From: Candidatus Levyibacteriota bacterium
GTDB taxonomy: Bacteria > Patescibacteriota > Microgenomatia > Levybacterales > UBA12049
Length of the DNA stretch: 64,000 nt
Assembly: GCA_038253825.1 (NCBI GenBank)
Contig: JBBSGT010000002.1
Span: 685 to 64,684, forward strand
Direction: 5' to 3'
A model generated the notes under the pieces. The model ran no database searches, was not told where the DNA came from, and saw nothing but the letters and a program-made list of their open reading frames with translations. Positions within the stretch are counted from its first letter, which is position 1; every line of letters begins with the position of its first letter. This document shows positions 6,863-52,934 of this stretch, piece after piece. The translations under genes were made by a program, and so were the position numbers.

Positions 6863-6863
6863 A

Positions 6864-14257: not shown

Positions 14258-15859
14258 CTAGTTTATTCGTTTAAATATGAGGATATCTTGGGAGGTGTAG
14301 ACTTTCTTAAAATATTTATAAAGATCACCTTGAATTTTTGAGTTATTGTAAATTGCAGACCAAACTGCATCATTCTTTTGCATGACAATCCAGGTTGCAT
14401 ATTTTTCGGGATGTTTTAGCGATTCATCCCAATATGGTTTGTTTCCTACATAAATTACCTTTTGCATAGGAATTGTGCTTTGGGTAATACTTATCGTCCG
14501 AGCATAATCGTCAATGAGTACGAATCCCCCATCGTAATGTTCGTTAATAAATTGCTCTACGTTGGTCGGAACTTTATTGGCTGAAAGGCCATGTGTACCA
14601 TCAGCAAGCGTTATGACAGGGGTATCGCCCATAAAGAAAAGTGCTGTTTGTAATATAAGTAACATGATAAGCACAAGTTTCAAACTCTTATGTACTCTTG
14701 CAACAAGATAGCCAAAGAATACAGCCATAAAAGGAATTATCATAACACCATAGCGAACATTGAATAAATGATAATCAAAATGCTGTGGTGTCAAACCAGG
14801 AATAAAGATAACTGCCTGACCCAAAAAGAGTGAGACTACGTTAAAAACAAAAGGAACAAATAAGACCAAGAGTGTTCCAATTCTTGCTTTAGCAGAATTA
14901 CTTGCCAGAAAAACTATCGACCCAACAAGAGAAATAACGAAAATAAAGAATCCAGTGTTTGCTAGTGCTGTGTAGACATAATAAATAATTGATAAGAGCA
15001 GGTTATGATATGCAGGTAATTCACCTTTTGCCATCCAAGCGAGTTGTTGAGATTTTGCAGAATAAATACTATCAGTAAAATATAAAGGATCACCCAAAAT
15101 TAAACCGCCCCAAACGAACCAGCAAAGGATACCAAATCCGGCCAGGGTCACAAACAAAATCATATCTCCTTTTTGTCTGACAAAAAGTTTACGATTAAAA
15201 ATACCAGGAGAGATAACAATAAGTGTTTCGAAAAGAACGAGAAACCAACCATCATATCGTGTTAAAGATGCACCGAAAGCAAAAAGACCTGCAAGTATCA
15301 GCGAGGATAAAACGTGATTTCCATGAAGGTATTTAACAAAATAATAAGATGACAAGATGAAGAAAGCAATAAGGGGTATTTCAGTCATTGGGGTTGATTG
15401 CAAATATAAAATATTAAGATTCGTGGCAAAAATGGTAAATGCAATAAAAGATGCAAAGTTATGTTGTGTGATGAGTCTTGTGAGTTTAAAGATATAAATA
15501 CAAGCAATGACATAAAAAATACCTGAGATCAGTGAACCTGCAAGACCTGTACGCCATAAAGGATCTGCTATAACAAATGGCAGCATTAAAATATGCGTCA
15601 TCGGTAACCAAATGCCACCGAGTTGCGCAAACCCAGGTGTTAAACCGTTCACTACTTTTTTAGCGATATTGATATGTGATTCAGCGTCGCCGTAAGCAAG
15701 TATCCAGTGATTGATATACGAAATATACGTAGCAATAAACGCAGCACATATCGACAGGAGAAAAATCATTTTTTCCATATTTGTCGAAAAGAAAAGTTTT
15801 ATCTTTTTATTGAAACTCTCCATAAATGTTTGTTGTCTGGTGATAATAAAACTTTGCAT
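14258..15859 (-). CDS. Polytopic membrane protein, family A paralog 1; putative GT-C-like glycosyltransferase.
   Basis: Carries the motif YGDAESHINIAKKVVNGLTPGFAQLGGIWLPMTHILMLPF shared with 27182, 48397 and 50008, about 11 transmembrane helices, and a soluble C-terminal domain. Confidence 0.65.
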   Translation of the reverse strand: MQSFIITRQQTFMESFNKKIKLFFSTNMEKMIFLLSICAAFIATYISYINHWILAYGDAESHINIAKKVVNGLTPGFAQLGGIWLPMTHILMLPFVIADPLWRTGLAGSLISGIFYVIACIYIFKLTRLITQHNFASFIAFTIFATNLNILYLQSTPMTEIPLIAFFILSSYYFVKYLHGNHVLSSLILAGLFAFGASLTRYDGWFLVLFETLIVISPGIFNRKLFVRQKGDMILFVTLAGFGILCWFVWGGLILGDPLYFTDSIYSAKSQQLAWMAKGELPAYHNLLLSIIYYVYTALANTGFFIFVISLVGSIVFLASNSAKARIGTLLVLFVPFVFNVVSLFLGQAVIFIPGLTPQHFDYHLFNVRYGVMIIPFMAVFFGYLVARVHKSLKLVLIMLLILQTALFFMGDTPVITLADGTHGLSANKVPTNVEQFINEHYDGGFVLIDDYARTISITQSTIPMQKVIYVGNKPYWDESLKHPEKYATWIVMQKNDAVWSAIYNNSKIQGDLYKYFKKVYTSQDILIFKRIN

Positions 15860-15863
15860 ACTT

Positions 15864-18080
15864 TTAAATACCTACCATATTTTTCGTTGCCAATTCTTTC
15901 TTTACTACTTGTTTCACTTGATCACTTGTTTCTTTAAGTTTAAGATGCAAACCGTGTTTTGTTTTTGACCAATGATGGGGTTTTACAATAAGTTGATATA
16001 AAGCAATCCATGATGCAATACTCATTGTTAGCCAGTAAAGTGGAACCAGAAAGACATACTGTATAAGATCGTAATGACCATGTTTTGCACAACCGATCAT
16101 GTAGTAATAAAGATATAAGAAATTACCCACTACCAATGAAAATACACCCATATAAAGAACAGGTGCTGGGAAAAAGGATTCAATAAAATCACCGACAAAA
16201 GGACGGAAAATAAAATAAGTCAACGTAATAAACCACATTAACGGATTGATAAAAAGTGAAAGTACTTTTCCACCTATTACCAGTTGGAATGTAATAAGAT
16301 GTACACGTTTATTACTTGGCAAAAAAGTTTTCAGATTTCTGGTATGAACGAGGTATGTTTGCATGTATCCCTTAATCCATCGTGAACGTTGTGCAAACCA
16401 GTTCATAAGGCTGCTATTTGCTTCTTCCAGTGTCTCTGAATCAACAATGGCTGTCGTATAACCTTCTTTAACCAACCGAATTCCAAGATCAGCATCTTCT
16501 GTCACATTAAAACTATCCCATCCTTTGAGTTTGTGTAAGTCTTTGGTTCTAAAATGGTTTGAAGTTCCACCAAGAGGAATTGGGGCTCCAATAGATTGCA
16601 ACCCCGTTAAAACAAGATCAAACCAAAGTGAATATTCAGCGGTAAAGACTCGAGTTAAGAAATTTTGTTGGGGATTATAGAAATTTAATTTGGCTTGGAC
16701 ACAAATCGTATTTCTTCGAGCTTTCGCAAAAGCTATGACTGATTTTTTTAGCTGCAATGGATCAGGTGCATCTTCAGCATCATAAATTACTGCATACTCT
16801 CCTGTCGCTTTGGTCAAACCATAATTACAAGCTTTTGGCTTGGTTTTTGGATAAGAGTGAGGAACAATAACAACTTCAAAATAAGAAGGCAAGTTAAATT
16901 TTGCGACTTGATCAATCGTCTCTTTATCATTTGCTTCCAACAGCAACATAACTTGTAATTTATCTTTGGGATAAATAAGTTTACTCATAGAGTTAACGAA
17001 TTGCGGGATCACCTGCCATTCCTTATAAAGTGGGCAAAAGACTGTGTAGCTAGGCCAAATGTGGTCAGGAATAGCTTGAATTTCTTCGATGGATACTTTA
17101 ATTTCTGCCGGTTTTACAAAGCTTCTGGTAATCAAATAAAGATTAAATAAGAGATCTATAAAATAAAGAAATGTTAAGACTGCGATAAATATAATAATAG
17201 TAGTGTGCCAGTTAATAATAAGTCCGGTCAGAAGTATAAGCAATGTGACAATTATATAGACTCCTTGTTGAAAGGTAATTCTCTGAAAAGCTGTCTCTGC
17301 TGGCTTTAATAATGAATAGTGAATGAATTCTTTTCCGTTATAGTGAAATCCATTTCCTTTTACTTTCCTTGTGTTGCGATGAAATGGGATAATTTCTTTT
17401 CCTTGAAATTTCATTTTTATGGCATTAATGCCGATTTCCCAACTCGATTTTAGTAAATGAATTTTTGTTTCACCTGAGGTGCGTTTTGCTAGTCGCATAT
17501 TTATGGTATCGATTTTGTAACCAGCATCTAAACTTTTTTTCAGAAATTCTAAATCAAATGTCCAAGGTGAAGGATAAATATGCAGTCGTTCTATAATTTC
17601 TTTCTTAAATATTTTTAAGCCTGACTGAATATCGAAGTTCAGTCCATGGAGAATTTTACCAAAAATATAAAGAAAGCTGCGGCTAAAAAAATTACGAATG
17701 AAAGTAGTATTACTGAGAATACGATTCGCTACAACGACATCAGCCCCTCGATTAATTTTATCAAGCATTTCAGGAATTGATTCAGGTTGATACTGCAAAT
17801 CACCGTCGATCATACAAAGAAGATCATATTGAGCATAACTAAATCCTTCAAGAAGCGACTGGGCCTTGCCTGGGATTCCTTGTTTAAGATATAGACGGAC
17901 AGGAAAACGCTGAGCAAAGTGTTTGACGACTGATTGTGTTTTGTCGCTTGAATGATCATCGACCACAATGATCTCGTAAGATATATTTTTGTGGTAAAGC
18001 GTATTATTAATACGCTCAATAAGATGTCCTATATTCCCTACTTCGTTCCAAGTAGGAATGATAATTGAAAGGCTTTGCAT
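15864..18080 (-). CDS. Bifunctional glycosyltransferase: N-terminal DPM1/ArnC-like GT2 fused through transmembrane helices to a processive synthase-like GT2.
   Basis: N-terminal IIIPTWNE...VVDDHSSD...DGDLQY, and a C-terminal D, D, QRSRW (QxxRW) set with YDAEDAPD. Confidence 0.8.
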   Translation of the reverse strand: MQSLSIIIPTWNEVGNIGHLIERINNTLYHKNISYEIIVVDDHSSDKTQSVVKHFAQRFPVRLYLKQGIPGKAQSLLEGFSYAQYDLLCMIDGDLQYQPESIPEMLDKINRGADVVVANRILSNTTFIRNFFSRSFLYIFGKILHGLNFDIQSGLKIFKKEIIERLHIYPSPWTFDLEFLKKSLDAGYKIDTINMRLAKRTSGETKIHLLKSSWEIGINAIKMKFQGKEIIPFHRNTRKVKGNGFHYNGKEFIHYSLLKPAETAFQRITFQQGVYIIVTLLILLTGLIINWHTTIIIFIAVLTFLYFIDLLFNLYLITRSFVKPAEIKVSIEEIQAIPDHIWPSYTVFCPLYKEWQVIPQFVNSMSKLIYPKDKLQVMLLLEANDKETIDQVAKFNLPSYFEVVIVPHSYPKTKPKACNYGLTKATGEYAVIYDAEDAPDPLQLKKSVIAFAKARRNTICVQAKLNFYNPQQNFLTRVFTAEYSLWFDLVLTGLQSIGAPIPLGGTSNHFRTKDLHKLKGWDSFNVTEDADLGIRLVKEGYTTAIVDSETLEEANSSLMNWFAQRSRWIKGYMQTYLVHTRNLKTFLPSNKRVHLITFQLVIGGKVLSLFINPLMWFITLTYFIFRPFVGDFIESFFPAPVLYMGVFSLVVGNFLYLYYYMIGCAKHGHYDLIQYVFLVPLYWLTMSIASWIALYQLIVKPHHWSKTKHGLHLKLKETSDQVKQVVKKELATKNMVGI

Positions 18081-18582
18081 ATTGTATTTACTTGTGAAAA
18101 CAAGATAGAGTTAGTCATAGTAGGCAGTAGAAACGATTATTTCGTTAAGCAAAAGTATATAGTATTTCTCCCAATAAAGCAAGCCTATAGCAAAATGTAG
18201 TAATTTTTTACAATAATATTAGTAAGTTCAATAATGAAAATAGGTATAACTTTCTGTTAGCTACTGAGGATAGAGAGCTTGTATTTTTTTAAAAAACTTT
18301 AATTTTACTTTATCAACTTAGAGTAATTAATATAATGTTTATATTTTTCACAGAGAAATTTCCACGCAAAATATCATACTATCAGATATTTGTCATAATT
18401 CCTTATTGACATGAGGTAAAACTTTCTGTTATCTTATGTACTAAGACTGCCCCAAAAATAGGAGAATTTTAATTTACTACTTTACTATAAGACGGTTATA
18501 GTGTATAATACTCAAAATTAGGATTGGATAATTGCTGATGAAGCTAAAAAAATAATTAGCTTGTAAAAAATCCAGTCCTTTT

Positions 18583-21500
18583 ATGATAATTTATCAGCTC
18601 ATAGTATCATACATTGCAAAATATATGTCAAATAAAATAAAATTATTCAGTGTTATTATACCTGTCTATAACGAAATTGGTAATATAGCGCAGTTTCATC
18701 AACACTTACTAAAAACACTTACCTCGTATAAAAAACGTTTCGAAATCATCTATATCGATGATAATTCGACAGATGGCACGTATGAATGGTTACAAAGTAT
18801 TTCCCTCGCGCCTACTATTAAGGTAATTTTAAAAAATGGCATTAAAGGTAAAGCATATTCACTCATCCAAGGTTTTGATGTAGCTAAAGGAGATGCTTTT
18901 GTCATGATTGACGGTGATCTTCAGTACCCACCGGAAAAAATTCCAGAGATGATTGATGCGCTACAAATATCTGATATTGTGGTAGCGGAACGAAAGAAAT
19001 ATAAAGATAGCACATTACGCAAATTTCTTAGTAAAGGATTCAAGACAGTATTTGGGAAAATGATGTTTGGTCTGAATACTGATATTCAATCGGGTCTGAA
19101 AGCCTTTACAAAAGAAGTCTATCAAACAATTCAGTTTCAGCCTGTTTCTCCATGGACATTCGATCTTGAATTCCTCTACCGTTCACAACAAGCAGGATTT
19201 AGTATTAAAAATGTATCAATCATCTTTGCTCCACGTTTGAGTGGCGAATCAAAAGTGAATGCTCTTAATCAATCATGGGAAATTGGAACCAACGCACTTT
19301 CAATAAAAATGAAAAGAAAGCTTTATTTGCCAATTAAGGCAGTAAAGGGTTCGATGCGTGGTGCAGGTATTGGATATAAAAAGAAAAAATATATTACCCA
19401 TACGACTTTACCTGCTTCCCTGTCTGCTATCGAAACCTTCTCTCTGTCACAGAAAATATTTTTTCTTGGATTTCCAGTTTTGTTAATCCTTGCTCTTTTT
19501 ATGTTCCCATTGCCTGCGGCAAGAACGATCGTAGGGGTTTTGAGTATGCTCTACTTCATTGATGCCCTCTTTAACGTATTTGTGGTAACTCGCAGTTTGC
19601 AAAAAGATCATGACATTAAAGTAAGTGATGATGAACTTTCACTCCTCGATGAAAGCAAATTGCCACTCTATTCTATTCTTTGTCCTTTATATAAAGAAGC
19701 GCACGTTGTACCACAATTTTTGGAAGGTATCGCAAAGCTTGACTATCCAAAAGATAAATTAGATGTGATGTTTCTTCTTGAAGAGGATGATCTAGAAACT
19801 ATTGCAGCCTTTGGTCAGATGACACTTCCTTACTATGCCCGTACAGTTATTGTTCCTGATTCACAACCAAAAACGAAACCCAAAGCTTGTAACTACGGAT
19901 TGTCTTATGCAAAGGGTAAATATCTTGTTATTTTCGATGCAGAAGATTTGCCAGATCCCCTACAACTGAAAAAGGCAGTTATCGGATTCAAAAAAGTTCC
20001 GGCAGATATTAAATGTTTACAAGCAAAGTTGAGTTATTATAACTCACGTCAGAATTTGCTTACTCGCTTCTTTACTGCAGAGTATGCTTTATGGTTTGAT
20101 GTCACACTGCCAGGTTTGCAATCGCTTAACTCAGCATTGCCGTTGGGTGGTACGAGTAACCATTTCGAGACAGCAAACTTACGCGAACTTGAAGGATGGG
20201 ATCCATTTAACGTAACAGAAGATGCTGATTTGGGTGTCCGGTTGTTCAAACATGGGTACCGTACCGCAATTATCGATTCAACAACCTACGAAGAAGCTAC
20301 AAGTGTGACAAAAAACTGGTTACGACAACGCTCCCGATGGCTTAAAGGTTACATGCAAACGTATTTAGTGCAAATGCGCAACATTAACTCATTTGTAAAG
20401 AATAAAGGTGTCTGGCATACCATAATCTTCCAATTGACAGTTGGTGGCAAGATCCTTTTCGTTCTTTTGAATCCATTTATGTGGATTATCACTATTTTGT
20501 ATTTCAGTGCGTATTCTATTTTTGGTCCGGTGATGCAGGAGATCTATCAACCTCCACTTTCCTATTTCGCAGTCTTTTCGTGGATATTTGGCAACTTTAT
20601 GTTCTTATATTGTTACATGATTGCCGTAGGAAAACGTGGTCAATGGGATCTTGCAAAGTATGTTTTGTTAATTCCGTTTTACTGGGTCCTTATGAGTACA
20701 GCTGCTATGGTTGGTTTGTATCAGCTTATCCTGAAACCTCATTATTGGGAAAAGACAATTCATGGATTCCATTTGACCAAAAAGAATCTACCGGTACCAG
20801 CGGTCAAACCGGTTGGACAGCCAATTGCACAACCTGTGTATGTTGCTGCAGCAACACCAGTAAATAAAATTAAAGATACCCCTTTTGTGCTTACAATGCC
20901 TTCACAAATAAATGTTTCAACATTTATCTTACGATGGTTACCACTCTTTGCGATATTAAACACCGATTTGGTCTTGGCACGGTTTTTCTTACCATATGAA
21001 GATGCACAACTTTATATTGTTCTTTCGTTATTTGGCAAAGCTGTTTTCATACTCAGTCAATTCCTTTCCAACGTCTTAACAGCAGCAACTTCTAAAAAGA
21101 GAGTCAGTAAAGGATATTTATATCGATTACTTTTCTTTACGTTCTTATTCAACTGGATCGGATTTGTGGTATTTGGGTTGGAAGGTTCATATACTATTCC
21201 AGCATTGCTTGGAAATACCTATACAGGCATTATTCCATACATGGGCTATTATCTTTTTGGACTTACTTGTTTGGGCTTGACGAATCGTCTTACAACCTTT
21301 AATCTCTACAAGAAAAAATATTCATATACGATGTTATCGGTAGCGATCATCTTGTTACAAGTACCCTTCATTATTCTGCACCATGAAACAGTTTATAACT
21401 TCGTACGCATCTTTGCGTACTTTGGTTCTATTAATCTTTTCGTCCTCGTTGTCCTTCAGATGAGCGTTGTTAAAAACCTCATTATGGAGAACAACTTTAT

Positions 21501-22713: not shown

Positions 22714-22725
22714 TTATAAAGATTT

Positions 22726-23616
22726 ATGAAACATCTACCTAGTATCTCAATTGGTATCCCGGCTTATAACGAAGCAAGAAATATTAAAAAACTTCTTAAG
22801 TCGCTCCTCGCGCAAAAGGAAGTTGGTTTCCGTTTAGAATCTATTATTGTCGTTTCTGATGGAAGTTTTGATACAACAGGAATCCAAGTAAAGTCTCTCA
22901 AAGACAAACGTATTAAACTCTGGGATGACCATAAGCGACTTGGAAAATCAGCTCGGCTTAATCAACTTTTTCGCAAAAATTCAGCTGATGTATTAATACT
23001 CGCAGACGCGGATATCAAAATTGCCGATCCTAACCTTTTAAGTACCATAATAAATGATAGCGATTTTAAACATGAAGGTATTGTCGCCGTAAATGCCACA
23101 CCAACAAGGGGAAAAACATTTATCGAAAATTCACTCAATGCCGGGGCTTTTGCTGTTAAACAAATGTCGGAAGACTGGAGAAACGGTAATAACTATTTAT
23201 CCTTCAAAGGTTGTTTTCTGGCTTTGGATAAAAATTTAGTGAAGAAAATTTCTATACCTGCAACTCTTGTTAATAATGACGCATTTCTTTACTTTTCAGC
23301 GCTTGCGTATAATTACACACCTGCCTACAGAAAAAATTGCGTCGTTTATTATCGTTCACCTGCAACACTGGATGATCATATTAAACAATCATCAAGATTT
23401 AAAAGCTCAAGTGAAGAATTAAAACAATATTTCAAACTGGATTTAGAAAAAGAATATAAAACACCCATTGCAATTATGCTTAGTAGCATACTACAATCAT
23501 TAATAAAGAGACCGGTCTTTTTCCTTGCTTATCTCGGCATTAATAGTATTTCTCAAATCAAAAAGCAAACCAATATTAAGAGTACATGGAGTATTGCTTC
23601 TTCAACAAAACAGTAA
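22726..23616 (+). CDS. Family 2 glycosyltransferase, DPM1-like.
   Basis: N-terminal ISIGIPAYNEARNI motif, with DGS/DAD aspartates. Confidence 0.7.
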   Translation: MKHLPSISIGIPAYNEARNIKKLLKSLLAQKEVGFRLESIIVVSDGSFDTTGIQVKSLKDKRIKLWDDHKRLGKSARLNQLFRKNSADVLILADADIKIADPNLLSTIINDSDFKHEGIVAVNATPTRGKTFIENSLNAGAFAVKQMSEDWRNGNNYLSFKGCFLALDKNLVKKISIPATLVNNDAFLYFSALAYNYTPAYRKNCVVYYRSPATLDDHIKQSSRFKSSSEELKQYFKLDLEKEYKTPIAIMLSSILQSLIKRPVFFLAYLGINSISQIKKQTNIKSTWSIASSTKQ

Positions 23617-23641
23617 ATATCGCGTTTGACTCTTCTTATCC

Positions 23642-24733
23642 ATGAAAACCGACAAATATCAAAAATTACCATTATTTCATTTTTCTTCAGAGTTGAAGAG
23701 ACGTCATATAAAGAAAAACCTTAAGTGCGTTATCTTTGGCAATTTCGGCGCAATGAATTTAGGGGATGAAGCGATCCTCGCAGGTGAAATACAAGAGTTG
23801 CAAAAACTGCCAAATATAGCAATTACCGTTGTAGCTCGTTACCCTGAAGAAATTAAACGCTTACATCAGGTTCAAAGCATTTCACTTTATAATCTGCGTG
23901 AAATTAGACGGGCTGTAAAGAAATCTGATTTTGTCATAGTTGGTGGCGGTGGTCTTATTAATAAAGTAGAGAGAAGTTTTATTGGATTTGGATATCAGCT
24001 GTATATGTTATTTACGTTCTTTTTTCTCCCGCGTTTTTATAAACGGAAATTATATATCTTTGGTGTCGGAATTTACAGCAACGCAAATTCTCTGATCTTA
24101 CATCTTGCTTATCCATTAATTAAATACGCAAGCATAGTTACTGTTCGTGACCATCATTCTTATGCCTTTTTAAAAAGTAAAAACATTCACGCAATGCTTT
24201 ATAAAGATAATAGTTTTCTTATGGATTTAGCACCAATGGATGTTGTTATGAAAGAGGAAATATTCAAAAAAGAATATAGAAAAGATCGAGATAATATCGG
24301 TATTTCACTTGTAAAACCAGATAGTCCGGCTGAAGAAAAGCGATTGATAAATGAAATCTCAGCCTTTATACTCGATAATCATAAATATTCGGATTTTTGG
24401 TTCTATCCAGCTGATTATAATCCCGAATACGAGGGTGATCATAAACTTATGGAACGTGTTCTTATCAAGGCAAAAAAACAAACAAAAGATCCAATCATAC
24501 TTCATACAGTACCTATGAAAGCAACTCCCCAAGTTTTTTTCGGATCAATTAAATTAATGAATCGTTTTATTGCGATGCGTTTTCATGCAGCTGTTTTTGC
24601 TTATCGCAATAAAGTTCGCTTTACAGGTATATCTTATGATAAAAAAGTAGCGAGTTTTCTGGAAGCAGTCGGAAAAACTTCTTTAAGCCTCAAAACCTTC
24701 AAGGCAAAAGATATCGAAAATAGTATCTTATAG
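23642..24733 (+). CDS. Polysaccharide pyruvyl transferase family protein (CsaB/WcaK-like).
   Basis: FGNFGAMNLGDEAIL N-terminal signature followed by a GGGG loop. Confidence 0.65.
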   Translation: MKTDKYQKLPLFHFSSELKRRHIKKNLKCVIFGNFGAMNLGDEAILAGEIQELQKLPNIAITVVARYPEEIKRLHQVQSISLYNLREIRRAVKKSDFVIVGGGGLINKVERSFIGFGYQLYMLFTFFFLPRFYKRKLYIFGVGIYSNANSLILHLAYPLIKYASIVTVRDHHSYAFLKSKNIHAMLYKDNSFLMDLAPMDVVMKEEIFKKEYRKDRDNIGISLVKPDSPAEEKRLINEISAFILDNHKYSDFWFYPADYNPEYEGDHKLMERVLIKAKKQTKDPIILHTVPMKATPQVFFGSIKLMNRFIAMRFHAAVFAYRNKVRFTGISYDKKVASFLEAVGKTSLSLKTFKAKDIENSIL

Positions 24734-24754
24734 TTTGCATTTCCTGAGTATTTA

Positions 24755-25609
24755 GTGTATAATGCCAGAACCTATAATCTAGGTAAGACTTTGAGTATGT
24801 ATTTATTATTTAAAATAGTAACAAGTATCAGAAAAATGGTATATCAAATACTCGGTTCACTAGACCAATTTGTTTTCCATATGAAAAATCCTGTTGTTAT
24901 CCTCTCGTATCATAGTGTTTCAAATGATGATTGGCGTTTTAGTGTAAGCGAAAAATCACTCAAAAAACAAATCGCTTATCTCAAAAAACATTTTGAGATT
25001 ATTACCCTCAAAAAACTTAGTGACCACCTTTCTGGAAAAAAGAAATTAACCCGTCCCGCCGTTGTACTTACTTTTGATGATGGGTATAAAGATATTTTGA
25101 AAATGGAAGCATATTTTAAGAAAAATAAAATTAAACCTGCATTATTTGTCCTCGCAAATAGTAAAAATCCAAATAGACAAGAATTGGGAAATAAAAAATC
25201 TTTCTTAAGTAAAAAAGAAATTCAATATTTGCACAATTCGGGTTGGGAAATTGGTTGTCACAGCGCAACACACGCAAACCTCGCAAGACTTTCTCAAAAA
25301 GAGCTTGATAAAGAAATTATGCAAGCCAAGCACAAAATGGAAAAGCAATTAGGATTTTCTATCCCCTATTTTGCTTATCCTCGTGGTAAATATAATGCAA
25401 ACGTAGTACGCTTAGTAAAAGTTGCGAACTTTTTAATGGGCTTTACTATGGATGATGGTATTATCAAACCAAATCGTGATGTATATACAATCCCACGGGT
25501 AGGAATTGATAGCACGCATACTTTTAGTGAATTCATTAATACTTTTTCTCCTTCAGTTGTCCGTTTTCGAGGTTTAATAAAGCGAAGTTCTGTGGGGAGG
25601 TATTTATGA
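24755..25609 (+). CDS. Polysaccharide deacetylase (NodB family).
   Basis: VVLTFDDGYKD (TFDDG motif) and HSATH. The true start may be the internal Met near 24881. Confidence 0.7.
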   Translation: MYNARTYNLGKTLSMYLLFKIVTSIRKMVYQILGSLDQFVFHMKNPVVILSYHSVSNDDWRFSVSEKSLKKQIAYLKKHFEIITLKKLSDHLSGKKKLTRPAVVLTFDDGYKDILKMEAYFKKNKIKPALFVLANSKNPNRQELGNKKSFLSKKEIQYLHNSGWEIGCHSATHANLARLSQKELDKEIMQAKHKMEKQLGFSIPYFAYPRGKYNANVVRLVKVANFLMGFTMDDGIIKPNRDVYTIPRVGIDSTHTFSEFINTFSPSVVRFRGLIKRSSVGRYL

Positions 25610-27192
25610 ACAAGTGGTTAGCAAATAAAAAAATTAAAATCTTAGGATATGTTCTGTTCACGTTTTTCTGCGCTTTAGTTTTGACATTATCAGTTCGTGG
25701 ACTTCCGGGCAATCCTGACACGAGTCAACTTAACAGATTAACCTGGAAAGATAACGGACCCCTAGAATTATCACCAGAACGTGGCCGTTACGCGTTGACA
25801 TACGCTATTGCAGAGACACATAAATTCAGTTTTTCACCTGATTTAGCGCGTTTTGCTGCGCCGGACGTGGGCTTTCTCAATGGACAATATGTCTCTCTGT
25901 TCGCGCCTACTGTATCATTTATTATTCTTCCCGGGTATTTGCTAGGAAAAGCAGTTGGGTTTGCACAAGTGGGAAGTTTTGCTGTGATTGCTTTATTTGC
26001 TTTGTTTAATGTCTATCTTATTCGTTCGATTTCCATAAAATTGGGCGCACACCCATTAGCTGGATTGATTGCTGGATTAGTATTCCTTTTTGCGACGCCT
26101 GCTTTTGCCTATGCCGTCACACTGTACCAACACCACATCTCAACATTTATCATTTTATCTGGTATTTATCTGTTAATTAGCTTTGACTCAGTGTGGGCGC
26201 TTATTGGTATTTGGATGCTTTGTGCTTTATCAATTTCGGTTGATTACCCGAATTTCTTTATGATGTTACCTATCGGCATCGGTGCGTTAGGTCGAACCAT
26301 CATAGCTAAAAAGCAACAGTATGGTTACGTTGTTAAAATCCCTGTTATGCGGGTTCTTGCGTTACTTACCATGATTATTCCATTGGCTTTCTTCTTATGG
26401 TTTAACAATGCTTCTTACGGAAGTCCTTTCCAATTATCAGGTACTGTAGATCGTTCGGTCCAAATTAATCCAAATGGTTCTCCTGTTTTGGAAAGTGAAC
26501 AGGTTAAAGCCCGGTTAAAATCAGCCGGCCAGCCTGCAGTAATTCCGCAAAAAAGTGCGTTAGGAGCATTTAATAGTCGGCTTATTATGCAAGGATTTTA
26601 TATTTATTTCTTCAGTCCAGATCGTGGAATAATTGTTTATACGCCTGTTATGCTTTTTGGATTTGCCGGTTTATTCCTAGCGCTCAAACAGAAACTGAAA
26701 TATACATGGTTATTGGTAGCAGTCATTGGATTTAATATTTTATTATACTCTATGTGGGATGATCCATATGGGGGTTGGGCATTTGGTTCACGTTATTTAA
26801 TCCCCTCATATGGAGTCCTGTCAATTTTCTTAGCGTATATATTGACCAGACTTTCAAAATATAATCTCTTTTTACTTTTCTTCTTCGCGATATATGTGTA
26901 TTCAGTAAGTGTCAATACACTTGGAGCACTTACCTCAAACAGAAATCCGCCCCAAGTCGAAGCTGTTGCTCTCTCTAAAGTAACGGGGCATGATGAACCA
27001 TATACCTACATCCGAAATCTGAATATTCTAAACTCAAATGAATCTAAATCAATCGTGTTTGATACGTATGCCACAAATTATATGAGTGCATGGAATTATT
27101 ATAGTTATGTAATGGTTCTTATTATTGTTGTCTCAGCGTTTTTACTGATGACATTGAAGTCGGTAACGAAAGGAGTTAAACATGCACTTTAA
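25606..27192 (+). CDS. Polytopic membrane protein; putative GT-C-type (ArnT/PMT-like) glycosyltransferase.
   Basis: 528 aa with at least 11 transmembrane helices and a large first extracytoplasmic loop with conserved acidic/aromatic residues; its start overlaps the upstream stop. Confidence 0.5.
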   Translation: MNKWLANKKIKILGYVLFTFFCALVLTLSVRGLPGNPDTSQLNRLTWKDNGPLELSPERGRYALTYAIAETHKFSFSPDLARFAAPDVGFLNGQYVSLFAPTVSFIILPGYLLGKAVGFAQVGSFAVIALFALFNVYLIRSISIKLGAHPLAGLIAGLVFLFATPAFAYAVTLYQHHISTFIILSGIYLLISFDSVWALIGIWMLCALSISVDYPNFFMMLPIGIGALGRTIIAKKQQYGYVVKIPVMRVLALLTMIIPLAFFLWFNNASYGSPFQLSGTVDRSVQINPNGSPVLESEQVKARLKSAGQPAVIPQKSALGAFNSRLIMQGFYIYFFSPDRGIIVYTPVMLFGFAGLFLALKQKLKYTWLLVAVIGFNILLYSMWDDPYGGWAFGSRYLIPSYGVLSIFLAYILTRLSKYNLFLLFFFAIYVYSVSVNTLGALTSNRNPPQVEAVALSKVTGHDEPYTYIRNLNILNSNESKSIVFDTYATNYMSAWNYYSYVMVLIIVVSAFLLMTLKSVTKGVKHAL

Positions 27193-28810
27193 TATCAGAA
27201 CATTTTCATTACAATTTTCAATCAACAATAAACCCGTAGAGGCAGCAAAAAAGTTATTTGAAAATCATGCAACAGTCATCCTCTTTTTCATGTTGAGTAT
27301 GATTTCTATTGCGAGCTTCTTATACTTTCTTTCAAATCATTTAGGTGTTGCATACAATGATGCCAGGTCACATTTGGATATTGCCCGTCGTGTTGTCGAA
27401 AATCTTAAACCCGGATTTGCTCAGCTAGGGAGTGTTTGGTTACCGCTTCCTCATTTACTTGCTACGTTGACAGTTTGGAATGACACGATGTGGCATACAG
27501 GACTGGCTGGCGCATTACAATCAATGATTTCGTATGTTGCCACAGGTATTCTTATTTACCGCATTTTGCAAGCACTGGGCGTTACTCTTTATGGTCGATT
27601 AGTAGGTGTTATTGTCTTTGCTTTGAATTTGAATATTATTTACATGCAATCTACAGCGATGACGGAGTTACTGCTTCTCGGTACGATGACTGCCGGCGTC
27701 TATGAATTAATCCAGTGGCACAAAGAAGAAAAAATGACACGACTTCTTATGTCAGGATTGTGGATTATGCTTTCAACGATGATTCGTTATGATGGTTGGT
27801 TTCTCCTTTTCTTTGCCACCATATTGATTATCATTCAGACCATGCGAAAACATAATTATAAAACTACAGAGGGTGTCGTGGTAATCTTCGGAACCTTGGC
27901 TGGATTTGGTATATTCCTCTGGTTTTTCTGGAATTTGATAATTTTTAAAGATCCACTTTACTTTATCTTAGGACCTTATGCAGCGGGAACACAACAACAA
28001 CAGTTGGCTGATGCTGGTGTTCTTGCAACCAAGCATAACCTGCCATTCTCACTCCAAACTTATATCTACGCTATCTTTTATAACAGTGGCGTCTTCACAA
28101 CGATTTTGGCATTTATAGGGGTTATTTTATTCTGGTTTGATAAAAAAATTAGTAAAGAGTTACGATATGCTGCAACTGCACTTTTAGCGCCATTTATATT
28201 CAATGTCCTTTCGCTTTACTTAGGACAATCAGTACTCTTTGTTCAAGGGTTACATGGAAATTCTTGGTTTAACGTCCGTTATGGTTTAATGATGATACCT
28301 TCAATTGCTGTATTTGTCGGTTATCTGACACAGCGAGTAAAACCAGTACGCTATGTCATTTTAGCGTTATTACTTTTTGTGACTTTTTTCAGTTATGTTA
28401 ATCGTGATGCCGTGACTATTGATGATGCTGTATTTGGTGCAAGTGGTAAAAATGTATCACAAGTTAGTAGCTGGCTGAATCAACATGTACCTAACAAGCC
28501 GGGATTTGTCTTAATATCAGTTGCTTCCCATGATGCTATTATTTTCTCTTCAGGTTTACCGATGAGCCGATTTATTCATGAAGGAACTGGTTTGTATTGG
28601 AATGCGGCTATAGCTCACCCTGTGCATTGGGCTCGCTGGATTATTTTGCGCACTGGTGATGCAAACGATCAAACATATAGATTATTGCATAATAATCGAG
28701 AATTCAAGAATGATTATACATTAACAGACCATTATCCTTTTGCTGACATTTATGAAATTAAGCCGCAATACGTGAAAGATCTTCACATCAAACCTTCCCT
28801 GGAACTCTAA
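27182..28810 (+). CDS. Family A membrane protein, paralog 2.
   Basis: Carries the family motif YNDARSHLDIARRVVENLKPGFAQLGSVWLPLPHLL. Confidence 0.65.
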   Translation: MHFNIRTFSLQFSINNKPVEAAKKLFENHATVILFFMLSMISIASFLYFLSNHLGVAYNDARSHLDIARRVVENLKPGFAQLGSVWLPLPHLLATLTVWNDTMWHTGLAGALQSMISYVATGILIYRILQALGVTLYGRLVGVIVFALNLNIIYMQSTAMTELLLLGTMTAGVYELIQWHKEEKMTRLLMSGLWIMLSTMIRYDGWFLLFFATILIIIQTMRKHNYKTTEGVVVIFGTLAGFGIFLWFFWNLIIFKDPLYFILGPYAAGTQQQQLADAGVLATKHNLPFSLQTYIYAIFYNSGVFTTILAFIGVILFWFDKKISKELRYAATALLAPFIFNVLSLYLGQSVLFVQGLHGNSWFNVRYGLMMIPSIAVFVGYLTQRVKPVRYVILALLLFVTFFSYVNRDAVTIDDAVFGASGKNVSQVSSWLNQHVPNKPGFVLISVASHDAIIFSSGLPMSRFIHEGTGLYWNAAIAHPVHWARWIILRTGDANDQTYRLLHNNREFKNDYTLTDHYPFADIYEIKPQYVKDLHIKPSLEL

Positions 28811-28833
28811 TTATTTTCGGGTATAATAAATAT

Positions 28834-29832
28834 ATGACCTTTACCCGGGGAGAAAAAATTTATATTTTCGTTACCTTTCTCGTTGGCATGAGTATTTTTT
28901 CCTTACTTATTTTGCCTAGCCAAAATAACAAACTCCATATGAAACAGACACAATGGCAAATACAATCAATTGATACTATGAAATATTCTCGTGATATGGC
29001 GAAATATAATGCGAGCAATGTGAAATATACTACTGAGGTCAAAAAACAAGTTGCAGATATTGCGAATACAGGCGCAAATTATATTGCGATTGATACGCCT
29101 TATGATGACGAATTTCTTCCGGTATTGAATTTATGGGTATACACAGCAAGAGAACATGGGTTACATATATGGTTCAGGGGAAACTGGTCAGGTTGGGAAG
29201 GTTGGTTTGGGTATAATCGCATTGATGAGCAAACACATCTAGCAAAAACAAAGCAATTTATTAAAGAAAATAAAGATCTTTTTCAAGATGGAGATATATT
29301 TAGCTCCTGTCCGGAATGTGAAAATGGTGATGCGAAGCTCAATTTAGCTAATCAGCAGTCAGTTGCTGCCTATCGACAATTTCTTATTGAAGAATATCAG
29401 GCAACCAAAGATGCATTTGTAGATATCCATAAAAATGTCGCCAGTAACTATTTTTCAATGAATACAGACGTTGCCCGAGAGATCATGGATAGAGAAACAA
29501 CTATTCAGCTTGATGGACTTGTTGTCATTGACCACTATGTTTTAACGCCTGAGCAATTGGCAAATGATGTTTCATTAATTGCTCTGCAAAGTGGCGGAAA
29601 TATTATGTTGGGAGAAATGGGTGCACCAATTCCCAGTATTCATGGCGCAATGACTGATGAACAACAAAGGCAATGGCTTGAGCAATCTTTACACGAGCTC
29701 TCTCAAATAGGTAAATTAAACGGCATAAACTACTGGGTTAATAAAGGTGGTTCGACCGCATTATGGAGACCAGATGGTTCTCCCAAGCCCGCCGTAGCCG
29801 TCATAAAATCCTATTTCACCAAAAACCAATAA
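28834..29832 (+). CDS. Secreted family B protein; putative clan GH-A-like glycoside hydrolase.
   Basis: Signal-anchor helix, the motifs WQIQSIDTMK, GANYIAIDTPYD and WFRGNWSGWEGWF, and candidate catalytic glutamates in CPECENG and GEMGAPIP. Confidence 0.55.
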   Translation: MTFTRGEKIYIFVTFLVGMSIFSLLILPSQNNKLHMKQTQWQIQSIDTMKYSRDMAKYNASNVKYTTEVKKQVADIANTGANYIAIDTPYDDEFLPVLNLWVYTAREHGLHIWFRGNWSGWEGWFGYNRIDEQTHLAKTKQFIKENKDLFQDGDIFSSCPECENGDAKLNLANQQSVAAYRQFLIEEYQATKDAFVDIHKNVASNYFSMNTDVAREIMDRETTIQLDGLVVIDHYVLTPEQLANDVSLIALQSGGNIMLGEMGAPIPSIHGAMTDEQQRQWLEQSLHELSQIGKLNGINYWVNKGGSTALWRPDGSPKPAVAVIKSYFTKNQ

Positions 29833-29965: not shown

Positions 29966-30026
29966 TCCTCTTTACTAAACATATAGGTTTATTAAATTAT
30001 ATATAATCTATCTGTTAGAGAATACT

Positions 30027-30683
30027 ATGTATAAAAAAATATTATTAATGACACCAATCGCTGCGACACTCTTTATGAGTGCAGCTCTTCCTGTGTACGC
30101 AAATCCTATTCCACAATTCGGATCATGTGTTAATCCACAATGGGCACAAACTCAAGTTAATTATGGAGATAGTCATGGTGTCGTTGGTGTCAATAAATTT
30201 CCTGGTGTAGACAGTATTTATTCTTCAAATGGAAATACGATGCAATGCCTCTGTACGAATACAGGTGAAGGTTACCAAACAAATTGGTTAAAAGCCTCAA
30301 ACTATTCTCATGATCAAATTGAATCCTTGCAAGCACAAGGTTGGATCTATATATCGGAAGCAGAAGCTAAGGATAGCTGGGGTTTGGAATCAGGTCCTTA
30401 TCTTGCGAAAAATGAGACCTATGCATGCACAGCTTGTACACCAACTCCTACCGTAACACCCACAGGTACGCTTACTCCTACACCAACAGTGACAACACCC
30501 GGACCAACAGCAACACCAGGACCCGGCGCTACTGCAACGCCTGAAACAAAAGTACAAGGTGCCTCTGCAAACAACAATAATGTCTTGGCTTCCACAGGAA
30601 ATGCTTTAGTTATCTACGTTTCACTCCTTGCCGGAGCAGTATCCTTGATCTTGGGATTGTTCCTGAAAAAGTTTGGTAAATAA
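30027..30683 (+). CDS. Secreted Cys-containing surface protein with a Thr/Pro linker and a C-terminal LASTG (LAXTG-type) cell-wall sorting signal.
   Basis: Signal peptide (AATLFMSAALPVYA), six Cys residues, a TPTPTVTPTG linker, then LASTG followed by a hydrophobic helix and a KKFGK tail. Confidence 0.7.
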   Translation: MYKKILLMTPIAATLFMSAALPVYANPIPQFGSCVNPQWAQTQVNYGDSHGVVGVNKFPGVDSIYSSNGNTMQCLCTNTGEGYQTNWLKASNYSHDQIESLQAQGWIYISEAEAKDSWGLESGPYLAKNETYACTACTPTPTVTPTGTLTPTPTVTTPGPTATPGPGATATPETKVQGASANNNNVLASTGNALVIYVSLLAGAVSLILGLFLKKFGK

Positions 30684-45841: not shown

Positions 45842-45846
45842 GGAAT

Positions 45847-49980: not shown

Positions 49981-50007
49981 TGAGGAAAAATGTAATAACA
50001 AATTATT

Positions 50008-52774: not shown

Positions 52775-52934
52775 GTAGACTCCATCAATTATTTAGTTTA
52801 AATACGAAGATACCATCTACATATCTTTCCAAACAAAGGAATATAAAATAAGACTTAAACCGAAAGATCAACGCTTGATCTGAAGAATTGGACAAATTGT
52901 TCAAACTCGTTTATAGTGATCAAACATGTAAAAT

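Follow-up and report, generated by a model that had tools for sequence, protein, structure and literature searches.

Several described pathways resemble parts of the locus reported here. The lipid A aminoarabinose pathway is composed of ArnC, ArnD, ArnE/F and ArnT, and the LgmA/B/C pathway of Bordetella is similar to it. In the biosynthesis of mycobacterial and corynebacterial LM/LAM and of eukaryotic GPI, a GT4 (PimA/PIG-A), a deacetylase (PIG-L) and GT-C mannosyltransferases (PimE, MptA/B, PIG-M) work together and are fed by Ppm1/DPM1. Extracytoplasmic systems of three components, a GT2, a flippase and a GT-C, are an established precedent, with O-antigen glucosylation by GtrB/GtrA/GtrX, LTA glycosylation by CsbB/GtcA/YfhO, GacI/GacK/GacL and PPPRS/MATE/GT136 as examples (PMC11127046, PMC7389260). 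The Pgf system of S. mutans (PgfS, PgfM1, PgfE and PgfM2) and the streptococcal GtrB/PgtC2 system are responsible for protein O-glycosylation (bioRxiv 10.1101/2024.05.05.592596).

The locus compared with these systems lies in a window of 64,000 nucleotides, the whole stretch of DNA that was analysed. It is a genuine cluster of genes with strong conservation, and the bacterium is an ultra-small one of the CPR/Levyibacteria type. The span up to position 31224 probably serves Microgenomates-type CPR as a conserved assembly line for an envelope glycan and performs polyprenyl-phosphate-dependent, GT-C-mediated extracytoplasmic glycosylation. Its product most likely arises from lipid-linked sugars synthesized inside the cell and becomes attached to a cell-surface glycan or protein outside.

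Gene content and conservation of the locus

The open reading frames claimed in an earlier note on this DNA were located exactly where it had placed them. The features are as follows, in window coordinates:

14258..15859, minus strand: polytopic family A paralog, 533 aa, of a predicted GT-C fold family (621 bits against the A1 profile)
15864..18080, minus strand: two-domain GT2 protein, 738 aa (Pfam Glycos_transf_2, Glyco_tranf_2_3 and Glyco_trans_2_3)
17361-18080, minus strand: N-terminal DPMS/GtrB/ArnC-like polyprenyl-phosphate glycosyltransferase domain of the 738-aa protein, aa 1-240
18583..22713, plus strand: four-module protein, 1376 aa (Pfam; 49% identity to the 738-aa protein over 714 aa)
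18649-19332, plus strand: its module 1, a DPM1-like GT2
19669-20508, plus strand: its module 2, a BcsA-like GT2
~20905-21537, plus strand: its module 3, a MOP/Wzx-like multi-TM segment, aa ~775-985
21607-22632, plus strand: its module 4, a GT4 domain
22726..23616, plus strand: generic soluble GT2 (GT-A), 296 aa (Pfam Glycos_transf_2, 60.6 bits)
23642..24733, plus strand: polysaccharide pyruvyl transferase (PF04230 PS_pyruv_trans, 102.6 bits against a cut-off of 25.3)
24755..25609, plus strand: NodB-type (CE4) deacetylase (PF01522 Polysacc_deac_1, 82 bits against a cut-off of 23.1)
25606..27192, plus strand: family B protein, 528 aa, polytopic, unannotated, GT-C-like as judged by hhalign against A and gene context
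27182..28810, plus strand: family A protein, 542 aa, predicted GT-C fold, with a C-terminal soluble domain of ~130 aa
28834..29832, plus strand: predicted clan GH-A (β/α)8 protein, 332 aa, anchored by a single TM helix
30027..30683, plus strand: small surface protein, 218 aa (from its sequence and homologs)
30673..31224, plus strand: sortase (PF04203, 67.8 bits against a cut-off of 26.6)
44252..54215, plus strand: paralogous "block II" (blastp paralogy, Pfam, A1/A2 profile scores)

The cluster had been taken to end at 29832, but the functional unit reaches 31224 and thereby gains the LAxTG protein and the sortase. Across related CPR genomes B→A→GH is a nearly invariant order that commonly continues into the small LAxTG surface protein and the sortase. 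The proposed linkage proved tight and not scattered: B is located next to A in 61 of 62 loci, a GH gene lies inside 5.5 kb in 38 of 44, the LAxTG gene follows in 28 of 44 and a sortase comes after it in 24 of 44; about one third of the loci lack the two genes. GT4 (49/53) and the MOP-like module (40/53) are frequent, the deacetylase occurs in 22/53, and the pyruvyl transferase, with 3/53, is a lineage-specific accessory gene. The conserved core is thus B-A-GH, while the cytoplasmic glycosyltransferase and tailoring set differs from genome to genome (PIG-L, FemAB-like, DegT and epimerase genes in loci L001, L002 and L004), which suggests lineage-specific glycan structures built on a common transfer machine.

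Family A also occurs in simpler settings. The 14258 gene is immediately downstream of the gene for the 738-aa GT2 protein, and this pair is referred to as the two-gene "module 2". Block II comprises a BcsA-like GT2 (44252), a GT2, a GT4, a 121-aa orphan, two family A genes (48397 and 50008) and two GH-like genes (51464 and 52935). Distant family A paralogs in other genomes are directly 3' of DPM1-BcsA-like fusions and 5' of GH genes. In all these paralogous modules a BcsA-like GT2 is always present, a GH usually, and the LAxTG gene never; the sortase is likewise missing from them. Paralog E-values in the window range from 1e-64 to 1e-105 and the gene order is kept in dozens of genomes, so the pattern is not due to chance.

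Physical fusions link the same partners. B is fused to A (P0242), to NodB deacetylases (n=5, including P0241, P0243 and P0251), to PIG-L deacetylases (n=4), to GT4 (n=4), to a GT2 homologous to the 22726 product (P0252) and to GH (L073), and A is fused to a GH5 β-mannanase in L060, L075, L077 and L080. Together with the predicted GT-C fold of family A and the synteny, these fusions support the extracytoplasmic glycosylation reading of the earlier note.

Families A and B and their predicted outer-face partners

Two family A polytopic membrane proteins had been proposed, and both are real: the 14258 and 27182 products share 36% identity over ~500 aa (E 2e-101). Neither has a Pfam match, and the 14258 product has no NCBIfam match; the block II paralogs 48397 and 50008 score 19.7 and 23.1 bits on Pfam PMT_2, below its cut-off of 26.1, and NF047440 gives 26.9 bits for family A against a cut-off of 200. 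Accordingly, the family A proteins of the window reach no Pfam or NCBIfam threshold for existing curated GT-C families (PMT_2, PMT, GT22 and others), and sequence-profile searches of the PDB returned no matches for family A, family B or the GH-like family.

Structure prediction gave a model of family A with a pLDDT of 85 and a pTM of 0.84. A Foldseek comparison with GT-C folds, which the earlier note had put forward, returned GT-C-fold proteins for all of the best 47 matches, including STT3, ALG12, DPY19, AglB, Pmt4, ArnT, the Emb and Aft families and PIG-U, with the highest TM-score of 0.57 to ArnT; the first transporter in the list was GLUT3 with a probability of 0.12. At the level of the predicted model, family A is therefore shown to have a GT-C glycosyltransferase fold. 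Asp60 of the 27182 product, in the motif A-Y-N-D-A-R-S-H after TM1, is the same in all of 40 sequences compared, among them paralogs with 30-38% identity, and the 14258 product carries a conserved AYGDAESH motif after TM1. In the model D60 is placed between helix 16-51 and helix 59-74, and the conserved acidic residue is thus predicted to lie in the first extracytoplasmic loop after TM1, as in the GT-C superfamily. Based on the genomic linkage of family A to DPM1-like GT2 domains, a polyprenyl-phosphate-linked sugar is its putative donor.

The further membrane protein proposed at 25606 is polytopic by TM scan and has no Pfam match. Its family B, with 1048 cluster representatives at E<1e-3, aligned to family A by hhalign with a probability of 68.5% (E 4.6e-5, 284 columns). 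Sub-threshold GT-C matches were found for PMT_2 in 4 of 52 members (best 7e-9) and for PMT and Glyco_transf_22 in one each, and NF047440 gave 2.8e-6. Family B thus appears to be distantly related to A and GT-C-like, by a weaker link than that of A itself.

The 28834 product had been described as a secreted GH-A-like protein; the GH-A-like barrel was confirmed, but the protein is membrane-anchored and not demonstrably secreted. Its family displays a (β/α)8 barrel with a Glu after β4 and a Glu on β7, the canonical clan GH-A pair, and the 28834 product is a putative retaining β-glycosidase or transglycosylase. It has no Pfam match, and the GH-like paralogs score 20.2 and 17.9 bits on PF11790, under the cut-off of 21; by Pfam and the PDB profile search the family belongs to no existing GH sequence family. 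The hhalign probability against the GH5 domain fused to A is 0.2%. Since no nucleotide-sugar genes occur within the window, the only clue to the sugar comes from GH neighbours, which hint at a β-mannoside, and the set is at most a candidate for the complete pathway that the earlier note described.

The 30027 product consists of a signal peptide, a Cys-containing domain, a Pro/Thr-rich linker, LASTG, a TM helix and a basic tail (KKFGK). All 39 homologs at the same place in related loci have a low-complexity Ser/Thr/Pro/Gly-rich linker followed by L-A-x-T-G, a TM helix and a basic tail, and the protein is a conserved downstream partner and a candidate acceptor or anchor. The adjacent sortase scored under cut-off for all NCBIfam sortase classes.

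These neighbours raise the question of whether A and B form a dedicated protein O-glycosylation system of the Pgf/PMT type, in which they would modify the Ser/Thr/Pro-rich LAxTG stalk, and perhaps other surface proteins, using Pren-P-sugars before or after sortase anchoring. The frequent retention of both genes directly downstream and the linker common to all homologs are in line with this. So is the S. mutans Pgf cluster, which combines a GT-A enzyme and two GT-C enzymes with the adhesins modified by them, and PgfS is the second-best NCBIfam match (2.9e-26) of the N-terminal GT2 domain. However, that match is far under its cut-off (92 versus 500 bits), no YfhO-family match was found, and the MIR domain of PMTs is absent. 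Moreover, the paralogous A modules dispense with the LAxTG gene yet keep the BcsA-like GT2 and usually the GH, and protein modification leaves the BcsA-like domain, the many variable glycosyltransferases and the GH-A partner with its fusions unexplained. This explanation is considered unlikely.

Fused glycosyltransferases, tailoring enzymes and the proposed pathway

Two proteins had been read as fused DPM1-like and QxxRW GT2 synthases. Both domains were confirmed in each, but the MOP-flippase-like segment and the GT4 of the 1376-aa protein had been missed. The 738-aa protein consists, by TM scan, of the N-terminal GT2, two TM helices, the BcsA-like GT2 (aa ~340-630) and about four C-terminal TM helices. 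Searches of the N-terminal domain against the PDB matched DPMS (5mlz, 4e-25, residues 3-207, with DGD aligned on DAD), GtrB (4e-19) and ArnC (3e-14), and the domain matched TIGR04182 AglJ over its full length at 1e-24; no NCBIfam equivalog cut-off was reached. The C-terminal domain matched E. coli BcsA at 8e-16, with DAED, VTEDADLG and QRSRW aligned; it carries the D, DxD, TED and QxxRW motifs of processive synthases and is flanked by TM helices.

The BcsA similarity and the full set of processivity motifs would suit an ordinary synthase-dependent exopolysaccharide locus of the cellulose, PNAG or chitin type, in which the BcsA-like GT2 makes and exports the polymer, the NodB enzyme deacetylates it, the GH cleaves it (cf. 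BcsZ, PgaB and PslG), and A and B are accessory scaffolds or non-catalytic. PgaB and IcaB are indeed the best NCBIfam matches of the deacetylase, and non-catalytic GT-C folds are known, such as PIG-U. Nevertheless, all the relevant scores stay far under the equivalog cut-offs, with PgaC_IcaA at 99 bits versus 422, PgaB at 69 versus 322, IcaB at 63 versus 248 and CelA likewise for the BcsA-like domain. Pfam scans revealed no PilZ, BcsB or other known BcsA co-subunit. The deacetylase has no clear signal peptide or TM helix by TM scan and is present in less than half of the loci, acidic and basic residues are invariant in A and B where catalytic GT-Cs would be expected to have them, and neither the MOP module nor the fused DPM1-like domain would have a role. 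Such an ordinary locus is very improbable.

The mid segment of the 1376-aa protein, ~250 aa with multiple TM helices, appears to correspond by homology to the C-terminal half of a MOP/Wzx-type flippase. It matched stand-alone MOP-like proteins of 430-490 aa by phmmer with 46-98 bits, one of which reaches 27.3 against the 28.2 cut-off on Polysacc_synt, while another has PF13440. The segment itself has no Pfam match and ~6 TM helices versus the 12-14 expected of a MOP flippase, corresponding to about half a flippase. Many CPR genomes encode corresponding fusions of 1550-1620 aa in which the MOP is full-length, and no recognisable flippase was found in the two-gene module 2 (15864/14258). The pathway model does not explain what a BcsA-like, presumably self-translocating synthase does beside a flippase.

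Among the remaining cytoplasmic genes, the 22726 product had been called a DPM1-like GT2; it is a GT2 with no TM helix by TM scan, but its likeness to DPM1 is weak: PDB 5mlz matches its N-terminal half alone, at 6e-6. The pyruvyl transferase and the NodB deacetylase hold as proposed, both scoring well above their Pfam cut-offs. The former is closest to CsaB (TIGR03609, 135 bits, under the cut-off of 213), and the deacetylase gene shares its last 4 nt with the beginning of the family B gene.

Lipid-linked SCWP precursors are the substrates of CsaB-type enzymes, which is consistent with an en-bloc transfer or polymerisation. A glycan would be built on polyprenyl monophosphate with AglJ/DPM1-like initiation as in haloarchaeal N-glycosylation. 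The GT4, GT2 and BcsA-like activities would lengthen it, pyruvylation and deacetylation would modify it and MOP would flip it, after which B and A would polymerise the block or ligate it whole to the wall, to a lipid anchor or to a protein, giving a secondary cell-wall polymer or an LM/GPI-like lipoglycan. The full-length AglJ match agrees with this, as does the MOP flippase joined to a GT4 or the megasynthase in most genomes. Like repeat-unit loci, these loci differ in how many glycosyltransferases and which tailoring enzymes they have, and the fusions of B to two unrelated cytoplasmic-type deacetylase families and to GT4 recall the PIG-A, PIG-L, PIG-M and PimA, PimE orders. Contrarily, neither an initiating phosphoglycosyltransferase nor a Wzy- or WaaL-like protein was found. 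The WWDxG-type motif of the known en-bloc GT-Cs, the oligosaccharyltransferases of GT66 (STT3/AglB/PglB), is absent from the four A paralogs and B, where a regular-expression search detected no WWD or W[WYF]Dx[GS]. In addition, sequons in the flanking proteins are not enriched above composition expectation, and the simple two-gene modules of a DPM1-BcsA fusion and A are left unexplained. Block transfer is accordingly rated as quite unlikely.

For the favoured polyprenyl-phosphate-dependent assembly line, the logic from DPM1 to GT-C is supported here by the co-localisation of the genes and by a flippase-like module. The DPM1-like domains would put a sugar on polyprenyl phosphate at the cytoplasmic face, and the BcsA-like, GT4 and soluble GT2 activities may assemble or lengthen a glycan that the pyruvyl transferase and the signal-peptide-less deacetylase tailor. 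The MOP-like module would flip the lipid-linked sugar or glycan, followed by transfer to an envelope acceptor by B and A at the outer face, where the growing glycan chain, the Ser/Thr/Pro-rich stalk of the neighbouring LAxTG protein, or both may serve as acceptor. The membrane-anchored GH-A enzyme could trim, release or transglycosylate the product, in which β-mannoside-type linkages are probable, and the LAxTG protein would be fixed to the wall by the sortase. A bolder extension, put forward tentatively, is that A and B are two new catalytic GT-C families which, with the dedicated clan GH-A enzyme, form a CPR-specific outer-face "build-and-splice" machine in which lipid-linked glycosyl transfer is coupled with the cleavage or transglycosylation of glycans. 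A four-in-one megasynthase without precedent (Pren-P-sugar synthase, BcsA-like synthase, MOP flippase and GT4) would feed this machine, which would make a β-mannan-type wall polymer or a glycosylated stalk tying the sortase-anchored protein to the envelope.

The CPR/Patescibacteria account for much of bacterial diversity, and hardly anything is known of the biochemistry of their envelopes. The analysis provides model- and sequence-based fold-level assignments for two "hypothetical" families of more than 2000 proteins each, family A as GT-C and the GH-like family as GH-A, and a weaker profile-level GT-C link for family B. The three families are placed in a defined pathway context with conserved gene order, a candidate acceptor and a sugar hint. 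If correct, new GT-C and GH families would be added, with A and B as candidate new CAZy families, a donor synthase, a polymer synthase, a flippase and a GT4 would be documented in an unusual fusion, and the GT-C::GH fusions would be the first found, as far as the literature searched shows. The surface glycan and the sortase substrate would offer handles on how episymbionts build their host-contacting surface.

Comparison with known systems

LM/LAM and GPI synthesis include no BcsA-like domain, GH-A partner, LAxTG protein or sortase, and nothing in the locus pointed to phosphatidylinositol or another lipid as acceptor. The Arn pathway shares with the locus an ArnC-like GT2, a NodB-family enzyme without signal peptide and a GT-C, ArnT, that is the closest to family A in fold, and the deacetylase-to-GT-C fusions in related genomes mirror the ArnD-to-ArnT order. 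In contrast, the envelope context here is of Gram-positive type with a sortase, lipid A would not be expected, the deacetylase is accessory, and many more glycosyltransferases, a BcsA-like domain and a GH partner are involved.

Processive GT2 synthases (BcsA, hyaluronan synthase, chitin synthase/NodC and PgaC) and their partner hydrolases (BcsZ, PslG and PgaB) are matched in the motif set, in the TM helices on both sides of the catalytic domain and in a co-encoded GH of the clan of PslG. The locus differs from them in the N-terminal fusion to a polyprenyl-phosphate glycosyltransferase as well as in the missing PilZ and BcsB, and the association of a BcsA-like synthase with GT-C proteins is undescribed as far as the literature searched shows. 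As in Pgf and GtrB/PgtC2, a GT-A donor synthase and two GT-C or GT-C-like membrane proteins stand beside sortase-anchored proteins with Ser/Thr-rich disordered regions; unlike here, the Pgf GT-Cs belong to the YfhO family, and Pgf has no BcsA-like, MOP, GT4 or GH component.

The three-component systems likewise combine a DPM1/GtrB-type cytoplasmic GT2, a flippase, represented here by a MOP-superfamily-like module, and a polytopic GT-C with a C-terminal extracytoplasmic domain, all in one glycan locus. The small GtrA-type flippase is absent here, and the donor synthase is fused to a BcsA-like synthase, often also with flippase and GT4 in one polypeptide. Two distinct GT-C or GT-C-like families, A and B, stand in tandem, neither in a curated family, and they are accompanied by an obligatory clan GH-A partner that is at times fused to the GT-C.

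Gene layout of the cluster and its surroundings

The cluster lies in a window with a G+C content of about 36% and comprises nine open reading frames between 14258 and 29832, whose boundaries were exactly those stated by the earlier note, followed by an LAxTG protein and a sortase.

Main features of the cluster and of the second glycosylation block (window coordinates)
14258-15859, family A polytopic membrane protein
15864-18080, minus strand, 738-aa two-domain GT2
18583-22713, plus strand, 1376-aa fusion protein with a C-terminal GT4 domain (PF00534, 134 bits)
20905-21537, MOP-flippase-like multi-TM segment of about 250 aa within the 1376-aa protein, with stand-alone CPR homologs 430-490 aa long
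22726-23616, plus strand, 296-aa GT2
25606 (start), plus strand, family B membrane protein, 528 aa
27182 (start), plus strand, family A polytopic membrane protein, 542 aa
28834-29832, plus strand, GH-like protein, 332 aa
30027-30683, LAxTG protein
30673-31224, sortase
42517-54215, second glycosylation block, with the paralogous block II from 44252 onwards: GT2, hexapeptide O-acetyltransferase (WbbJ/WcaF-like), BcsA-like GT2 (44252), GT2, GT4, 121-aa orphan, two family A and two GH-like genes

The seven genes from 18583 to 29832 are all located on the plus strand with spacings of 12-25 nt or overlaps of 4-11 nt, and 15864-18080 and 14258-15859, 4 nt apart, are divergent to them. Pfam agreed with the earlier note on the double GT2 domains of the 738-aa and 1376-aa proteins and on the PS_pyruv_trans and Polysacc_deac_1 domains, and gave no match for the three membrane proteins (14258, 25606, and 27182) or the 332-aa protein. 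All-against-all BLASTP showed the paralogy within the window to be genuine: the four family A genes (14258, 27182, 48397, and 50008) share 30-38% identity (E 1e-64 to 1e-105), accompanied by three GH-like paralogs (28834, 51464, and 52935) and three BcsA-like GT2 paralogs (15864, 18583, and 44252). The BcsA-like GT2 of block II carries no DPM1 domain and is 65% identical to the 738-aa protein, and one block II GH-like gene includes a CarboxypepD_reg domain. The products of 27182 and 28834 were 100% identical to NCBI proteins (P0121 for 28834), with P0002 and P0122 as neighbours at 86-92% identity, labelled Candidatus Levyibacteriota like P0121. The contig is therefore assigned to a CPR/Patescibacteria bacterium of Microgenomates type.

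Outside the cluster, the window encodes housekeeping functions including BipA, an endonuclease III-like protein, DsbA/DsbB, a D-Ala-D-Ala carboxypeptidase, and a P-type ATPase, and no nucleotide-sugar biosynthesis genes were found within it. A 505-aa polytopic membrane protein (3646-5163, plus strand) matching neither Pfam or NCBIfam models nor the A or B profiles is directly followed by a PIG-L family de-N-acetylase (5260-6054, plus strand), and this deacetylase beside a large membrane protein repeats a theme common to the cluster. Between the two glycosylation blocks, the minus strand encodes a Fic_N-containing member of the Fic/DOC family (40736-41887).

Three paralogous secreted Asn/Gly/Thr/Ser-rich proteins, each with a signal peptide, flank the cluster (10278-11519 and 11594-13888 on the plus strand, 31287-31889 on the minus strand). 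They contain repeats resembling N-T-G-G-x-x-x-I-x-T-G-N-A and have no Pfam match; the 764-aa member additionally displays stretches rich in Pro/Thr and, towards its C-terminus, a TM helix with a basic tail. A role as surface proteins of fibrous or S-layer type may be considered for all three, as may one as acceptors of glycan. N-glycosylation of these repeat proteins was unsupported, as N-x-S/T sequons were only in slight excess over the composition-based expectation (22 versus 17.5, 34 versus 28.9, and 13 versus 8.3).

Membrane protein families A and B, GT2 modules, and the GH-like protein

Family A comprises more than 2191 homologs, all lacking annotation, and falls by sequence outside all curated models. 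Searching PDB sequences with members of families A, B, and GH, or with a profile of each family, gave nothing meaningful, which made a comparison of folds necessary. Foldseek placed 47 GT-C-fold matches in a row at probability 1.0 (ArnT at TM 0.57), with the first transporter at probability 0.12, so that the modelled fold of family A is shown to be GT-C, as the earlier note had suspected; a transporter fold was thereby ruled out. An oligosaccharyltransferase reading was also ruled out by the absence of the WWDxG motif. Across 40 aligned members, the four window paralogs among them, D60, R202, Y203, G205, N364, R366, Y367, and G368 were invariant. D60 sits in A-Y-N-D-A-R-S-H directly after TM1, and its membrane orientation was inferred from the order of secondary structures and the positive-inside N-terminus.

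Family B counts 1048 cluster representatives at E<1e-3. Profile-profile comparison aligned B with A over 284 columns (E 4.6e-5), placing W-A-F-G-x-R-Y-L-I-P of B on W-F-N-V-R-Y-G of A, and PMT_2 was reached by 4 of 52 family B members (best 7e-9), the window protein itself having no Pfam match. These sequence comparisons support, short of proof, a GT-C-like assignment of family B.

In the 738-aa protein, the N-terminal domain matched three solved polyprenyl-phosphate glycosyltransferases, namely Pyrococcus Dol-P-Man synthase 5mlz (4e-25, with the DxD aligned), Synechocystis GtrB (4e-19), and ArnC (3e-14). The C-terminal domain of the protein matched E. coli BcsA (8e-16) with aligned DxD, TED, and Q-R-S-R-W motifs, and is preceded by two TM helices and followed by about four. 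The same DPM1-like/BcsA-like pair recurs in the 1376-aa protein at 49% identity. The earlier note had recognized both GT2 types of these fusions but overlooked two further modules of the longer one, the GT4 domain and the MOP-like segment. Direct Pfam detection of the latter failed, and its homology was therefore established through stand-alone relatives, one scoring 27.3 bits on Polysacc_synt (cut-off 28.2) and another recorded with PF13440 Polysacc_synt_3. In most related genomes the fusion spans 1550-1620 aa with a full-length MOP-like module, or this module is fused to GT4 alone; the module in the window is about half length with about six TM helices, a short form shared with a few relatives (L008, L009, and L025). 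The 296-aa protein, described earlier as DPM1-like, is a GT2 by Pfam but a generic one, its similarity to DPMS (6e-6) covering only the nucleotide-binding half. Equivalog assignments to PNAG/Ica, cellulose, CsaB, PgfS, and AglJ were dropped because every score fell far under the curated cut-off.

The product of 28834 was modelled as a (β/α)8 barrel (pLDDT 92.9), which upheld the clan-A character proposed earlier; it is N-terminally anchored in the model, and secretion as such is not evident. Listed with the model were an exo-β-1,4-mannosidase (22.2), a GH164 β-mannosidase (22.0), a tomato endo-β-mannanase (21.2), a GH113 β-mannanase (21.0), and PslG (20.1). The invariant residues of the family include E161/E163-N164 just past β4 and E261, with which β7 ends; in the model, they are placed as the acid/base and the nucleophile canonically are in retaining enzymes of clan A. 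No existing GH sequence family was matched in Pfam, PDB sequence, and profile searches. A nearly invariant C-P-E-C (CxxC) in residues 159-164 surrounds one of the two glutamates that are acid/base candidates, and the window encodes DsbA/DsbB at 6194-7295; the active site may therefore have a redox feature or a disulfide.

Conserved gene order and fusions

Of all the functional evidence, conserved order and fusions, read from related genomes, carry the most weight. One genome per GTDB species was scanned by pattern, and at least 591 family A loci were detected. Among the 80 loci listed, informative titles named Levy-, Gottesman-, Ames-, Woese-, Roizman-, and Moraniibacteria, WWE3, Saccharimonadales, and similar groups. 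Many public MAG records with a CPR-type locus (L008, L009, L011, L013, L014, L020, L072, and others) bear titles such as Gammaproteobacteria, Pseudomonadales, Weeksellaceae, Sulfotelmatobacter, or Methylomirabilota; such titles conflict with the locus carried, and the source records are probably mislabelled taxonomically. Eighty-four loci were annotated using the A, B, and GH profiles and the other window domains.

Neighbours of 27182 orthologs (n=68; denominators are loci with sufficient flanking sequence)
B directly upstream of A: 61/62
GH directly downstream of A: 41/64
GH within 5.5 kb: 38/44
Homolog of the 30027 protein, downstream: 28/44
Sortase, downstream: 24/44
GT4, upstream: 49/53
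MOP-like module, upstream: 40/53
BcsA-like GT2, upstream: at least 34/53 (lower bound, since it often runs off the flank)
Deacetylase: 22/53
Pyruvyl transferase: 3/53

The linkage of family A with GH-like genes anticipated by the earlier note was thus borne out in related genomes (38/44), with B adjoining A almost throughout (61/62). Distant A paralogs directly follow DPM1-BcsA-like fusions and usually precede a GH (L065, L075, L076, L079, L080, and L082-L084), the same arrangement as the 15864/14258 pair and block II. A glycan acceptor is favoured by this constant association of family A with BcsA-like synthases and GHs.

B and A are fused in a single 1065-aa protein (P0242), B and GH in L073, and further B fusions read kinase-like + NodB + B, NodB + B, GT2 + B, GT4 + B, and B + B. 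The partners in 27 fused B representatives were GT2 (6), NodB (5), APH-like (5), GT4 (4), PIG-L (4), and FemAB-like (2) domains. A second acceptor candidate, a lipoglycan or a lipid-linked oligo- or polysaccharide, is favoured by the variability of the GT sets, by the fusions of the MOP-like module, and by the GT4/PIG-L links. An APH/choline-kinase-like phosphotransferase domain precedes NodB + B in several CPR genomes (P0241, P0243, and three more B fusion representatives), and a separate APH-like gene occurs in the window (38239-38844); the APH-like fusions hint that some pathway versions phosphorylate an intermediate, either a sugar or a lipid.

Family A carries a C-terminal bona fide GH5 domain (PF00150, 55 bits) in L060, L075, L077, and L080, for which all 16 PDB sequence matches were β-1,4-mannanases or mannosidases (best 5.7e-50). 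The window GH family as a divergent GH5 was ruled out (hhalign probability 0.2% against the A-fused domain): the two have the fold alone in common and are unrelated in sequence, and two different clan-A families are therefore associated with these GT-Cs.

The product of 30027-30683 begins with a signal peptide and a Cys-containing domain of about 110 aa, continues through a Pro/Thr-rich linker to LASTG, and finishes with a hydrophobic helix and a KKFGK tail; the sortase is the next gene. In all 39 homologs that occupy this genomic position, the C-terminal end is formed by L-A-x-T-G followed by a TM helix and a basic tail, with a linker rich in Ser/Thr/Pro/Gly/Asn ahead of the motif. The functional unit therefore runs to 31224. 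The LAxTG neighbour speaks for a third possibility, a Pgf-like system with a protein acceptor; each of the three acceptor candidates accounts for part of the data. The best sigma-70-like match of the region (TTGACA-17-TACAAT with a TG extension, 29938-29966, plus strand) falls within the 194 nt that precede the LAxTG gene. It suggests that the pair has a promoter of its own, in a promoter/terminator scan whose promoter-like sites were no more numerous than in shuffled controls.

Proposed pathway and comparison with known systems

The data show the folds of A and of the GH, the domain identities of the GT2, GT4, NodB, and pyruvyl-transferase proteins, conserved residues of catalytic type, and the conserved order and fusions. 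On the basis of what is established for the families named, a pathway can be proposed in which the DPM1/GtrB/ArnC-type domains would supply polyprenyl-phosphate sugars, while cytoplasmic glycosyltransferases would build a glycan tailored by the deacetylase, which has no signal peptide, and the CsaB-like enzyme. The lipid-linked species would then be flipped by the MOP-like module and used by B and A on the outer face, and the GH-A enzyme would process a β-linked, mannoside-type glycan. The β-mannoside type is suggested solely by the hydrolase neighbours. We consider this general glycosylation model reasonably probable, and its specific variants were ranked lower.

The Arn pathway and three-component glycosylation systems (PMC11127046, PMC7389260) follow the same logic as that proposed for this cluster. 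Literature searches found no description of such a system in CPR; the principle is already known, and its implementation here appears new to the searchable literature. Its elements are the unannotated GT-C family A in tandem with the GT-C-like family B, a donor synthase in one fusion with a BcsA-like synthase, a flippase-like module, and GT4, a GH-A partner that is obligatory and at times fused to the GT-C, and the linkage to an LAxTG protein and sortase throughout a branch of the CPR superphylum.
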